From the NCBI RefSeq assembly GCF_016903815.1, contig NZ_CP069973.1: a stretch of 64,000 nucleotides of DNA. One strand, given 5' to 3'. Shown here piece by piece: positions 2,350 through 5,509 of this stretch. A model generated the notes under the pieces. The model saw only the letters and a list, made by a program, of their open reading frames with translations. It ran no database searches and was not told where the DNA came from. Made by a program: the position numbers and the translations under genes. Numbering within the stretch: the first letter of the stretch is position 1; every line of letters begins with the position of its first letter. Source of the DNA: Escherichia coli (lineage in GTDB: Bacteria; Pseudomonadota; Gammaproteobacteria; Enterobacterales; Enterobacteriaceae).

Positions 2350-2697
2350 ATGAGAAACTCACTAATATTACTTATTATGATATTGTTTACAATATCACAC
2401 TCAGTATTTGGAAAAGAAAATTCAGTGGAAATTTTAGTAAATAGTCGTGAAATGGCTTTGGAATTATCATATGTTTATATTAAATATATATACGGGAAAG
2501 AAAAAGCAGAATTTCAGAAACCATATAGTATTACAGATGACAATAATTGTTGGAAAATCGAGGGAAAACAACCGAAGACGTTAGGAGGAAATTTTACAAT
2601 ACTAATAGCGAAAAAAGATGGGCAAGCGTTGGATGTAATACACAAAATAATCCACTGTTCAAACGATTCAAATATTTTACCAAGGTGTGTTTCATAA
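2350..2697 (+). CDS. Small secreted hypothetical protein (115 aa), immunity-type; paralog of ORF 4296..4562
   Basis: ORF with signal-like N-terminus MRNSLILLIMILFTISHSVFG. Shares the block ALEL-x-YxK-x-YG...KPY...W-x-EG with the 4296 ORF. Confidence 0.5.
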   Translation: MRNSLILLIMILFTISHSVFGKENSVEILVNSREMALELSYVYIKYIYGKEKAEFQKPYSITDDNNCWKIEGKQPKTLGGNFTILIAKKDGQALDVIHKIIHCSNDSNILPRCVS

Positions 2698-2894
2698 CTA
2701 TTTTGTGTACAATATGACTCTACATATCGACGAAAAAACCACTTGATTTGACAGGAACACATTCAAAAAAATTTCTTTTTCATTTCAGGAGCGATTTTCA
2801 TCTGTTACTTGAAGTATCTGTGAGATTAAGTGACTCCCCCTAACGTCGTACTAAATAGTAATTACTGGCCATACCGGGAGCAGTATTCGGCGCT

Positions 2895-3150
2895 TCCCAC
2901 ATGCAGCAGAATAACCGCATCAGCGAAGATGTATTGTATTTTTACTATCACAATGTGTACGGACGGTTTATGGAAAAGAATGAACATTAGATACGCGATG
3001 CGGCGGCAGATTACACGGTTATCACTACGATAGCCAATACTGGCTGGTGCATTACCGCCGTGAACAATAGGACGCCGTACTGCTGGAAATTTCTTACCTT
3101 TATGACTCCCCGCACCGCCGTATCGGGAAACGGGAAGCAGTCAAGATGAG
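2895..3150 (+). pseudogene. Vestigial rhs core fragment (degenerate, frameshifted)
   Basis: Nucleotide and translated similarity to the main core region ~200-430 (YHNVYGRFMEKNEH vs [30 protein letters not shown] vs [24 protein letters not shown] vs LYDPLGRR), interrupted by stops. Confidence 0.6.
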
Positions 3151-3199
3151 GCTGATATAATGTGTGGAATGCCTGAGTATTTTTAGAATAGAGGGTAAT

Positions 3200-3564
3200 A
3201 TGTTTGATAGAATATATCTTGGTGATCGACCAATAAAAAAATTGAATTTGATTTATGGAGCAAACAAATTAGAATTCAGGTGAATTTAATCTCAAGGATA
3301 GCCTATGGTACAACAGAATGGAATTTTTATAATAATGAAGACTTAGAAAATGGTTATTTAGTATTTACCGATGTTACTTTCTTTAATATAATACCTAATG
3401 GCTCCATTCCAGATGATTATATAGTTTCAATAATAACAGATAAAGTCAATGTTGAATGTTTTGAATCAACTATAGTTGCTGTTGGTCAAATTCGAAACAC
3501 AAATGTTGGTGACATTGATAATATTGGTGAATGTCAAATTCTCATCAGGTATAAAGACCGCTAG
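3200..3564 (+). pseudogene. Hypothetical small protein gene, apparently split by a frameshift (27-aa ORF 3200..3282 plus ORF 3280..3564)
   Basis: RBS GAGGG before ATG 3200. The short ORF stops where the 94-aa ORF begins in another frame. No recognisable family. Confidence 0.3.
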
Positions 3565-3848
3565 ATTGAGAATAAACTCAAAGAAAAAATAATTGAATAA
3601 CCATGTCAGTTATAGACATTTTAGATGGAACGAACCAGAGAAGGTCATGCCTCCGAGCTGGGTTATGTGGACACGGAGCTTTAGCGTAGTGAACTCAACG
3701 AAGCAAGCCGGAAACCTGCCAGCCCTTATCAGCACGTAAGGGACAACAGCGTAGTACGCAGAATAATCCTACCCACGTAGTATGGACACAGGCCTAAGCG
3801 AGGTTCTGGTTTTCAAATTTTTCAGGAGTTAGATGATTGGAGGAACAG

Positions 3849-4214
3849 ATGATAAGAATCGCATTTTTAATAACCAATAAATTTCTTGAGATAGATAGTA
3901 CCACTCTTGCTGGATATGATTTTAGCGGGATGAATCTACATCGTGCCACCCTCAATGGTTATTGTCTTGATGGGGCGAAATTTGAAAAAACTCATTTAAG
4001 AAATGTAATGATTCAACATACATCAACTAGAAATGCTGTCTTTCACAATGCGGCTCTGATGAATGCTATTCTGAATAACTCAGATTTCACTGGAAGTGAT
4101 TGTAGTAATTCAAGGTCAATAGGTGAAAATTTTAAAGCAATAGATAATCATGGGAAAGATATAATAAATGGAAAAGGATTGTCTAATGTTTGCAAAATAC
4201 ATGACAACGTATAA
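3849..4214 (+). CDS. Pentapeptide-repeat protein (orphan immunity-type)
   Basis: GGAGG RBS 6 nt before ATG 3849. Translation shows consecutive pentapeptide-like repeats (FSGMNLHRATLNGYCLDGAKFEKTHLRNVMIQHT...). Confidence 0.55.
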   Translation: MIRIAFLITNKFLEIDSTTLAGYDFSGMNLHRATLNGYCLDGAKFEKTHLRNVMIQHTSTRNAVFHNAALMNAILNNSDFTGSDCSNSRSIGENFKAIDNHGKDIINGKGLSNVCKIHDNV

Positions 4215-4295
4215 GAAAATATTATTCAGAACCTATGTGATTGTATCTTTGTTTTTACATACAACACATGGGCGCAGTGTAATAATATTATTATA

Positions 4296-4562
4296 ATGCG
4301 CAAGTATGAATGTGAGGGGAAATACACCGTTAGAAATTTGGTAAAAAATAAAGCTATAGCATTGGAATTAGCTGAGATGTATGTTAAAAATCGTTATGGG
4401 CATGATGCCGCAGAAGAAGAAAAACCATACAAAATCATGGAATTACCAACAAGTTGGATTGTTGAAGGCACCATTGAATCAGACCAAATTGCTGGTAGGG
4501 TTTTTATTATAGAAATAGGCAAAAATGACGGGAGAATTCTAAATTTTGGCCACGGAAAATAA
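4296..4562 (+). CDS. Small hypothetical protein (88 aa), paralog of ORF 2350..2697 but lacking the signal peptide
   Basis: ORF from the track; conserved block AIALELAEMYVKNRYG...KPYKI...WIVEG. No clear RBS, so it may be a 5'-truncated copy. Confidence 0.4.
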   Translation: MRKYECEGKYTVRNLVKNKAIALELAEMYVKNRYGHDAAEEEKPYKIMELPTSWIVEGTIESDQIAGRVFIIEIGKNDGRILNFGHGK

Positions 4563-4666
4563 GTATGTAAGGATAAACAAACATCGTGTGTGCTGATGGC
4601 AGAGTAGGTGGAGGACTCCAGACAGTCAAACGATAGAAAAAGATAGTCTTTATGGAGGTTCCTGCA

Positions 4667-5509
4667 ATGTCAAATACATACCAGAAAAGAAAGGCAAGTA
4701 AAGAGTATGGTTTATATAATCAATGTAAGAAACTAAATGATGATGAATTATTTCGCTTACTTGATGATCACAATTCCTTGAAAAGGATTTCATCTGCCAG
4801 AGTATTACAGTTAAGAGGTGGTCAAGACGCTGTTAGATTGGCAATTGAGTTCTGCTCTGATAAAAATTATATCCGTAGAGATATCGGAGCATTTATACTC
4901 GGGCAAATAAAAATTTGCAAAAAATGCAAAGATAATGTGTTTAATATTTTGAACAATATGGCATTGAATGATAAGAGCGCTTGCGTTCGAGCTACGGCAA
5001 TCGAGTCAACGGCTCAGCGATGCAAGAAAAACCCAATTTATTCACCTAAAATAGTAGAACAATCTCAAATTACTGCTTTTGATAAATCGACTAATGTCAG
5101 ACGTGCTACAGCATTTGCTATTTCTGTTATCAATGATAAAGCAACAATTCCACTATTGATTAATCTGTTAAAAGATCCAAATGGAGATGTCAGAAACTGG
5201 GCCGCATTTGCAATAAATATCAATAAATATGATAATAGTGATATTAGGGATTGTTTTGTGGAGATGCTTCAGGATAAAAATGAGGAAGTCCGTATTGAAG
5301 CAATAATCGGACTTTCCTACAGAAAAGATAAAAGGGTTTTATCTGTTTTATGCGATGAGTTAAAAAAAAATACTGTTTATGATGATATCATTGAAGCTGC
5401 GGGTGAATTAGGTGATAAAACGCTACTTCCTGTTTTAGATACTATGTTGTACAAGTTTGATGACAATGAAATTATAACTTCCGCTATTGATAAGCTGAAG
5501 CGTTCATAG
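4667..5509 (+). CDS. HEAT-repeat protein (orphan immunity-type)
   Basis: GGAGG 8 nt before ATG 4667. Translation has repeated D-x-x-x-x-VR-x-x-A-x-x-A-I/L motifs typical of HEAT/PBS-lyase repeats. Confidence 0.6.
   Translation: MSNTYQKRKASKEYGLYNQCKKLNDDELFRLLDDHNSLKRISSARVLQLRGGQDAVRLAIEFCSDKNYIRRDIGAFILGQIKICKKCKDNVFNILNNMALNDKSACVRATAIESTAQRCKKNPIYSPKIVEQSQITAFDKSTNVRRATAFAISVINDKATIPLLINLLKDPNGDVRNWAAFAININKYDNSDIRDCFVEMLQDKNEEVRIEAIIGLSYRKDKRVLSVLCDELKKNTVYDDIIEAAGELGDKTLLPVLDTMLYKFDDNEIITSAIDKLKRS

Follow-up and report, generated by a model that had tools for sequence, protein, structure and literature searches.

The window analysed here (64,000 nucleotides of E. coli contig NZ_CP069973.1, assembly GCF_016903815.1) contains, behind a full-length rhs gene, several small genes of immunity type that seem to have lost their toxins, which raises the question of how such a set came together and whether it is still maintained. 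The gene order (nikR–rhs…yhhJ) is that of rhsB in K-12 and identifies the E. coli rhsB locus; strain 7/2 is 100% identical to the window. The initial annotation had described an array of orphan immunity-type genes comprising four AT-rich ORFs (2350..2697, 3849..4214, 4296..4562 and 4667..5509). All four are present, the GC content of the array ORFs (0.29–0.35 versus 0.62 in the Rhs core) agrees with that description, and the idea of orphan immunity genes gathered at an Rhs locus is supported. The ORFs at 3849 and 4296, however, are pieces of damaged genes. We put at about 85% the probability that the interval consists of displaced Rhs toxin/immunity modules lined up one after another, most of whose genes have eroded. 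The features concerned are the following:

182..1615, plus strand: C-terminal part of the full-length Rhs gene (RHS element core protein, WP_048237751).
1612..2181, plus strand: YbfC-like protein of 189 aa with a signal-like N-terminus; the equivalent gene is annotated ybfC in loci L003 and L004.
2203..2340, plus strand: stub 1, the last 45 codons and stop of a DUF4329 (Tox-JAB-2) Rhs tip, reading INYSKKYVLNGYPGTPEGRFGKMDSDGKNIIYSECNVLPTTFEIR before the stop.
2350..2697, plus strand: orphan Imm-NTF2-2 gene, 115 aa (Pfam PF15631, E = 1.1e-17, model positions 1–67 of 68).
2901..3133, plus strand: decayed Rhs core fragment (about core residues 919–1004), frameshifted and interrupted by an in-frame stop.
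3130..3186, plus strand: stub 2, the last 18 codons and stop of an Rhs tip without an assigned family, aligning to the Rhs end of locus L002 (strain 2014C-3061).
3200..3564 (ORF 3280..3564), plus strand: DUF6258 pseudogene (Pfam PF19772, E = 3e-25).
3722..3765, plus strand: short Rhs core fragment (direct repeat D2, 84% identity to core 881–924).
3758..3827, no strand assigned: terminal ~62–70 nt of an IS3-family element (many records contain IS3-family ends that match it at 93–95%).
3837..4127 (ATG at 3849), plus strand: 5′ ~60% of a pentapeptide-repeat gene, 67% identical to residues 1 to ~92 of an intact 165-aa homologue from Salmonella enterica subsp. salamae (P0031).
4128..4214, plus strand: stub 3, the last 28 codons and stop of an RhsB-type DUF4329 tip (NFKAIDNHGKDIINGKGLSNVCKIHDNV in the window, NFKAIDNHGKEITNRKGLPNVCRVHGNM in K-12 RhsB, each followed by the stop).
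4186..4562, plus strand: frameshifted yhhH, the second Imm-NTF2-2 copy (PF15631, E = 4.2e-23, model positions 1–68 of 68).
4615..4646, plus strand: stub 4, the last 9 codons and stop of an RhsA-type tip (SRQSNDRKR; K-12 RhsA ends in WNCRHSRQSNDKKR and a stop).
4667..5509, plus strand: yibA, an intact HEAT-repeat immunity gene (NCBIfam PRK09687, E = 5e-140; PDB 1OYZ, E = 2e-182).
5551..6216, plus strand: orphan Rhs core-plus-tip fragment, yibJ-like (NCBIfam RHS_core, E = 1e-89), at the downstream end of the interval.

The full-length Rhs protein, 95.8% identical to that of the O157 rhsC locus, carries the conserved core and the DPxGL motif followed by a toxin tip for which Pfam and NCBIfam searches returned no family. 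The YbfC-like protein, likewise without a Pfam or NCBIfam family, is presumed to be the cognate immunity protein of this tip; in O157 ybfC is frameshifted. The array lies downstream of this rhs gene and all its members share the orientation of rhs. That no toxin genes accompany the small ORFs, as had been stated, is true of intact toxins, but the array retains four 3′ stubs of toxin genes, each of which can be aligned with the 3′ end of an intact toxin gene, and two decayed fragments of the Rhs core. The first fragment (2901..3133) is recognised by blastx against both the window's own Rhs and K-12 RhsB (E = 3e-11, 39–57% identity). The second (3722..3765) aligns to the start of the orphan core of L002 and of L003, and is the start of a further displaced module which has been cut off by the IS remnant. 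The orphan core starting at 5551 is a 96% direct repeat of positions 700–999 and is 94.8% identical to the orphan of the K-12 rhsA locus.

The stubs make it possible to assign each orphan to its former toxin without experiments. The intact toxin matching stub 1 (locus L006) terminates in INYSKKHVLNGYLGTPEGRFGKMDFDGKNIIYSECNVLPTTFEIR and a stop, and a 100-aa protein (P0005) with 85% identity to the product of the first Imm-NTF2-2 gene is encoded 9 nt after an intact Rhs-DUF4329 toxin (L006/L007). The window copy keeps its N-terminal hydrophobic segment (MRNSLILLIMILFTISHSVFG), and neither the predicted signal peptide nor the domain is damaged; the native stop (after …HTK) has been lost to a 2-nt deletion near 2640, which adds 17 residues. 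The gene was found in 847 of 5426 E. coli genomes. Its O157 copy has a stop at codon 29, a lesion independent of the one in the window, and the protein database holds several frameshifted NTF2 alleles. Stub 2 was identified from the Rhs gene that directly precedes an intact 133-aa DUF6258 gene in strain 2014C-3061; the tip of that Rhs has no family in Pfam or NCBIfam. Alignment to this intact gene (L002, 6073–6474) places two lesions in the DUF6258 gene of the window: a −1 frameshift in a run of A (A7 at 3235–3241 versus A8 in the intact gene) and a nonsense change (TGG to TAG, 3562–3564). The remaining sequence matches the family HMM but is not a complete ORF by the standard of the 133-aa protein. 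DUF6258 directly follows an RHS core protein in other strains as well. It is a fifth immunity-type ORF, absent from the initial annotation.

The second Imm-NTF2-2 copy corresponds to yhhH (89–92% nucleotide identity to K-12). Alignment to K-12 rhsB–yhhH locates a 4-nt deletion at about 4248, within the signal-peptide region, and a 3-nt deletion at about 4290. The ORF 4296..4562 (88 aa) is the part of yhhH that follows an internal Met and has no hydrophobic N-terminal segment, which bears out the suggestion that one of the two copies is a decayed remnant. Its NTF2 domain ORF is intact and relatives without a signal peptide occur naturally, so it may keep some residual activity. The only intact gene is yibA, whose product is identical to K-12 YibA at 279 of 280 residues. 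Its earlier description as a HEAT-repeat gene of immunity type proved correct, and Vlazny & Hill (cited in PMC3150448) reported that YibA neutralises the C-terminus of RhsA. K-12 RhsA has an Ntox34-type end with a WxCxH motif (WNCRH…KKR and a stop), the last 9 codons of which are kept upstream of yibA in the window. Both kinds of pairing are listed in the Zhang 2012 catalogue (PMC3482391), where Tox-JAB-2 (= DUF4329) goes with Imm-NTF2-2 and Ntox34 with Imm-HEAT. PADLOC gave no defence-system match apart from a weak HEAT similarity of yibA.

The pentapeptide ORF is a different case. It is a chimera in which the first ~97 codons of a 165-aa gene are joined in frame to stub 3, and its matches to pentapeptide-repeat models lie under the curated cut-offs. 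The proposal that it is an immunity gene is not established: the ORF is truncated and does not directly follow a toxin, and no toxin was found upstream of the gene in the window, in S. salamae or in Intestinirhabdus alba, nor any stub upstream of it in the window. A protein search and a scan of genome contigs for a cognate toxin yielded only the orphan copy of S. salamae and the I. alba gene, a full-length homologue (62% identity) that stands alone in the chromosome with no toxin nearby. The word "pentapeptide" is absent from the first 300,000 of the 357,715 characters of the Zhang 2012 catalogue. Yet the gene lies among the orphans at Rhs loci of two genera (E. coli and Salmonella enterica subsp. 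salamae), and it is conceivable, although we hold this only tentatively, that the intact 165-aa form represents an uncatalogued type of Rhs-toxin immunity protein, such as a DNA mimic that would block a tip directed against DNA.

Comparison by blastn with the K-12 rhsA and rhsB loci and the O157 rhsC locus divides the interval into two blocks. Block 1 (1–3765) shares ~95% identity with the rhsC locus of O157-type strains and comprises the main tip, ybfC, the DUF4329 stub with its Imm-NTF2-2 gene, a core fragment, the second stub with DUF6258 and the second core fragment. Block 2 (3828–6110) is older resident material of the rhsB locus and contains the pentapeptide fragment fused to the RhsB stub, yhhH, the RhsA stub, yibA and the orphan core. 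The joint between the two is marked by the IS3-family end remnant, whose match overlaps the 3′ end of the transposase CDS in locus L020. The GC-richer stretch 3600–3800 does not correspond to a known RNA, since an Rfam scan of 2000–7300 (E ≤ 1) gave no match; it proved to consist of the Rhs core relic and the IS3 end.

These observations can be joined in a simple scenario. A new tip with its immunity gene would recombine into the full-length rhs through the conserved core, and each such event would push the old pair downstream. Later deletions would strip away most of each old toxin gene, leaving a 3′ stub and the immunity gene, and the orphans, their role in self-protection gone, would then decay. 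The modules concerned are found on full-length rhs genes in other strains: this applies to the first Imm-NTF2-2 gene, DUF6258, yhhH and yibA, but not to the pentapeptide gene. In K-12 the cognate orders are rhsB then yhhH and rhsA then yibA. Some protection may persist against neighbours that fire RhsA-type toxins (yibA) and perhaps against a matching DUF4329 toxin (the first Imm-NTF2-2 gene); orphan yibA, in particular, may still shield the lineage from RhsA-armed E. coli.

Alternatively, the array could be a maintained multi-immunity island, comparable to polyimmunity loci or to the acquired interbacterial defence (AID) arrays of V. cholerae and Bacteroidales, all ORFs of which are expressed and selected against the Rhs toxins of non-kin. 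Several observations fit this idea: yibA is intact, is present at a single place in the genome (NZ_CP023820) as the sole copy and is at least 99% conserved across strains; the domain and signal peptide of the first Imm-NTF2-2 gene are intact; and toxins of the RhsA and DUF4329 types are frequent in E. coli. Moreover, all genes are co-oriented with rhs, and no plus-strand terminator-like site was found between the main rhs and yibA, in a scan for promoters and terminators whose counts are indistinguishable from those of shuffled sequences, so that read-through transcription as far as yibA is possible. Nevertheless, disabling lesions affect three of the five genes (DUF6258, yhhH and the pentapeptide gene) and the first Imm-NTF2-2 gene has lost its native stop, so this is not an array of intact immunity ORFs; the same genes carry different lesions in other lineages, and it is the intact 100-aa and 133-aa forms that adjoin intact toxins. 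Substitution rates have to be read with care: pairwise dN/dS against cognate copies is below 1 (0.23–0.39), a weak sign of constraint that is based on few substitutions and includes the time spent under selection as cognate genes, and dN/dS between two orphan copies of the first Imm-NTF2-2 gene is ~1.25, on very few changes, which speaks against maintenance. We therefore regard a maintained island as unlikely. Even less probability, close to none, is left for the idea that the ORFs arose by chance in AT-rich DNA or belong to unrelated housekeeping genes. The stand-alone pentapeptide homologue of I. alba and the lack of a family for the main tip and YbfC could be cited in its favour, but the family matches are strong, relatives adjoin intact toxins and conservation extends over hundreds to thousands of E. 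coli genomes; this reading is already refuted for yibA, DUF6258 and both NTF2 genes.

The two Imm-NTF2-2 copies raise a separate issue, since they had been thought to deploy the same fold in two compartments. Their homology, with a hydrophobic segment in the first only, was confirmed by pairwise alignment (38% identity over 76 aa, E = 1e-14), and both belong to the immunity family by the HMM search. Residues Y68, Y73, Y84 and W93 (K-12 YhhH numbering) are invariant in the alignment, in keeping with the "Y, W" that the Zhang 2012 catalogue (PMC3482391) gives as conserved in Imm-NTF2-2; a profile search of the PDB with the NTF2 domain found no solved relative. Members of the family directly follow a DUF4329 toxin in L006/L007, K-12 (L005), S. 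salamae (L013–16) and L022/L023, and only stubs of such toxins are left in the window. A deliberate pair, one protein exported and one cytoplasmic, acting against one toxin family in two compartments, would agree with the wider family, in which both N-terminal forms occur: among the best 128 representatives, 87 have a hydrophobic N-terminus, and in 19 the domain is preceded by fewer than 15 residues, and one member without a signal peptide is encoded 35 nt after an intact Rhs-DUF4329 toxin (L022/L023). Yet the window copy lacking the peptide is the orthologue of K-12 yhhH, whose intact product has a hydrophobic N-terminus, and the corresponding coding sequence is still present in the window, put out of frame by the 4-nt deletion. 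Furthermore, direct reading of the sequence reveals no Shine-Dalgarno-like motif ahead of ATG 4296, and each paralogue comes from a toxin module of its own, marked by a separate stub. As judged from these sequences, the ancestor of both copies had a hydrophobic N-terminus, and a two-compartment arrangement at this locus is very improbable. The broader idea that all Imm-NTF2-2 proteins are exported, and that DUF4329 toxins consequently act in the periplasm, was rejected on account of the peptide-less member adjoining an intact toxin. Since forms with and without a signal peptide both adjoin DUF4329 toxins, this "predicted RNase" could act in either compartment.

The displaced and eroded modules that we favour follow a known pattern, namely the C-terminal displacement described for Rhs (Jackson et al. 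2009, BMC Genomics, PMC2935791), to which erosion has been added. The window shares with the published arrays a full-length rhs followed by co-oriented dissociated tips on core fragments and small ORFs of low GC content, as well as the presence of the same tips and immunity genes on full-length genes in other strains. It differs in that erosion has gone further, most displaced tips being stubs of 9–45 codons, which makes the array look as if it held immunity genes only, and in that an rhsC-type locus supplied one block as a whole, with an IS3 remnant at the joint. The orphan immunity arrays of Vibrio cholerae T6SS clusters (Kirchberger et al. 2017, PMC5361080) similarly reflect serial effector replacement, the old immunity genes and sometimes the effector 3′ end being kept while cognate pairs exist elsewhere. 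However, those arrays are reported as largely intact and argued to be protective (PMC5361080), whereas three of five genes are pseudogenes here, and the carrier is an Rhs gene instead of a cargo effector. With respect to Tox-JAB-2/Imm-NTF2-2 pairs, both paralogues match PF15631 and their close relatives follow DUF4329 tips with an HTH…SxxD motif, but the window keeps only stubs of 28–45 codons of such tips.

The closest comparison is provided by K-12, where the segment with the rhsB end, yhhH and a HEAT remnant is 92% identical to 4128–5013 of the window, and that with the rhsA end, yibA and the orphan is 94.8% identical to 4615–6110. In K-12, yhhH and yibA each partner an intact toxin, whereas both are orphans in the window and yhhH is frameshifted; conversely, yibA is complete in the window but the copy at the K-12 rhsB locus, a HEAT pseudogene, is truncated by ISEc1. 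The locus clearly illustrates how old immunity genes build up at Rhs loci and are later eroded, all stages being found within 3 kb. The RefSeq annotation overstates the intactness of the array genes: the "NTF2 fold immunity protein" starting at 2425 is a truncated call of the first Imm-NTF2-2 gene, and the "DUF6258 family protein" is likewise a truncated call. For the other damaged genes, PGAP labels yhhH as "frameshifted" and treats the pentapeptide gene as a pseudogene in two pieces.

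The initial annotation described an array of orphan immunity genes here, and this reading is borne out by stubs and genes homologous to intact toxin–immunity pairs. The four small ORFs that it listed (2350..2697, 3837/3849..4214, 4296..4562 and 4667..5509) are all present, but a fifth immunity-type ORF, DUF6258 (3200/3280..3564), had been overlooked. The GC content of the array ORFs is 0.29–0.35, versus 0.62 for the Rhs core. The statement that no toxin genes accompany them holds for intact toxins only, as comparison with other genomes reveals toxin stubs (short 3' ends of former Rhs toxin genes, upstream of their old immunity genes) and core relics.

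Toxin stubs, core relics and insertion sequences
2203–2340: stub 1, C-terminal 45 residues of a DUF4329 (Tox-JAB-2) Rhs tip, INYSKKYVLNGYPGTPEGRFGKMDSDGKNIIYSECNVLPTTFEIR and stop
2901–3133: decayed Rhs core fragment with a frameshift and a stop (blastx E 3e-11)
3130–3186: stub 2, last 18 codons of a different Rhs tip, joined to the core fragment 2901–3133
3722–3765: further Rhs core fragment, cut short by an IS3-family end
3758–3827: one end (62–70 nt) of an IS3-family element, cutting off the core fragment 3722–3765
4128–4214: stub 3, C-terminal 28 residues of an RhsB-type DUF4329 tip
4615–4646: stub 4, last 9 residues of K-12 RhsA, SRQSNDRKR and stop
7236–7933: IS1, downstream of the orphan Rhs tip
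8115 onwards: truncated ISAs1/H-repeat element, after the IS1

Two E. coli contigs (L006 and L007) encode an intact Rhs-DUF4329 protein that ends with the stub 1 sequence and is followed, 9 nt later, by a 100-aa Imm-NTF2-2 protein 85% identical to the product of 2350..2697 (NTF2#1). Similarly, strain 2014C-3061 has a Rhs tip matching stub 2, then an intact 133-aa DUF6258 gene. The pairings observed here agree with the catalogue entries that couple Tox-JAB-2 (DUF4329) with Imm-NTF2-2 and Ntox34 with Imm-HEAT (PMC3482391). DUF4329 toxins (JAMM-like HTH…SxxD) are labelled RNases in the literature by prediction only. The array phenomenon and its genes were already known: the array is a case of the C-terminal displacement proposed for rhs loci (PMC2935791), and Vibrio cholerae likewise has immunity arrays that were given the same explanation (PMC5361080). 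Under this model, new tips would enter rhs via recombination in the conserved core, each incoming tip would shunt the old one downstream, and later deletions would strip most of each silent toxin gene. The array carries the stubs, the homologues of intact pairs and the lesions; the order of the displacement events is one that we infer.

Window positions 1–3625/3765 share ~95.5–95.8% identity with the rhsC locus of O157:H7 and strain B-JRPT-4119, whose order is ybfA–rhs–ybfC–NTF2–DUF6258–ISAs1. The K-12 rhsB end, with yhhH and a HEAT remnant, is matched by 4128–5013, and the K-12 rhsA end, with yibA and its orphan, by 4615–6110. These identities show that two blocks are joined in the window, an imported rhsC-type block with two relic modules of its own and older resident relics; the IS3 remnant is located at their joint. 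The locus, flanked by nikR and yhhJ in the annotated record, is the K-12 rhsB locus. Window 1–8000 is found with 100% identity on the chromosome of E. coli strain 7/2 and in many further isolates; at least 80% of it is present in 234 of 5,426 complete E. coli genomes (272 for window 2200–4640).

The two small proteins previously noted as homologous align with 38% identity over 76 residues (E 1e-14), and both match the immunity family Pfam PF15631 (NTF2 fold immunity protein, Imm-NTF2-2; E 1.1e-17 and 4.2e-23). NTF2#1 retains an intact domain and signal peptide, and a 2-nt deletion replaced its native …HTK terminus by a 17-residue extension. The RefSeq (PGAP) entry 2425-2697, called intact, uses an internal GTG start that leaves out the conserved signal peptide. 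The second paralogue is yhhH (4186..4562; 89–92% nucleotide identity to K-12). Two explanations had been offered for its missing signal peptide, deployment of the same fold in two compartments or decay of one copy. Decay proved correct: the yhhH orthologue has a 4-nt deletion around 4248, within its hydrophobic N-terminal region. K-12 YhhH begins with MSAEFMVICKKILFRNCVIVSLFVFTYNTWAQ…, and ORF 4296..4562 begins at the position corresponding to its Met40; the difference in signal peptides between the paralogues is an artefact of the frameshift. The two-compartment explanation fails for this pair because both copies descend from a form with the hydrophobic N-terminus. This N-terminus is seen in NTF2#1, K-12 YhhH and the Salmonella enterica subsp. 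salamae homologue, and probably in the homologue P0019, if an upstream TTG is the translation start. Nevertheless, both forms exist in the family, since one or more members lacking a signal peptide lie directly 3' of an intact Rhs-DUF4329 toxin (L022/L023). Among the best 128 representatives, 87 begin with a signal- or lipoprotein-like segment and 19 have fewer than 15 residues ahead of the domain. A profile search recovered 1,914 representatives (E <= 1e-3), which rules out the "E. coli only" distribution given in the family's entry in the 2012 catalogue (PMC3482391).

The DUF6258 gene is frameshifted (−1) within an A-run, A7 versus A8, and also carries a TGG→TAG change; RefSeq (PGAP) calls its mid-part, 3280-3564, intact. 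The pentapeptide ORF, whose matches to pentapeptide models all fall below curated cut-offs, is chimeric: from its start to residue ~97 it shares 67% identity with a 165-aa S. salamae protein, and from there it continues in frame into the RhsB stub. The full-length S. salamae relative also lies within a Rhs orphan array (IS630-like element, pentapeptide gene, orphan core), and a 62%-identical homologue in Intestinirhabdus alba is a stand-alone gene. With no cognate toxin found either in the window or beside the S. salamae and I. alba homologues, a role in immunity is plausible rather than demonstrated. The same site, some 20 nt 5' of the pentapeptide gene, is bordered by different IS remnants in the two species: an IS3-family end in E. 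coli (3758-3827) and an IS630-like element in S. salamae (L013 1561-2619; L014 1119-2153).

The HEAT protein 4667..5509 is YibA, identical to K-12 at 279 of 280 residues and corresponding to PDB 1OYZ. The gene is intact and single-copy in strain 7/2, where no RhsA-type tip lies beside it. Homologous sequence occurs in 3,133 of the 5,426 complete genomes, at >=99% identity in 2,872. The RhsA C-terminus is reportedly neutralised by yibA (cited in PMC3150448), and yibA may be the one orphan still under selection. No Pfam or NCBIfam family matched the main Rhs tip or the 189-aa YbfC-like protein paired with it (1150-2181); the tip looks active and its partner looks exported.

A relic array, with yibA as the exception, is favoured over a maintained defence because disabling damage affects three of the five genes and different lesions occur in other lineages. 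At the O157:H7 rhsC locus (L004 5412-6453), codon 29 of the NTF2 orphan is a stop and the equivalent ybfC is frameshifted despite following an intact full-length Rhs; both arose independently of the lesions in the window. Several frameshifted NTF2 alleles are on record. The dN/dS of ~1.25 between two orphan NTF2#1 copies comes from only 9 changes, too few to decide, and the values against cognate copies (0.23–0.39) likewise come from small counts. Any residual protection would come from yibA and perhaps NTF2#1, which may continue to shield against RhsA-type and DUF4329-type attackers, respectively. Further downstream, from the orphan Rhs tip to the IS1 (6110-7236), the window is free of annotated genes, and a 58-aa Sel1/YibG-like ORF fragment at 6832..7008 suggests one more eroded module.
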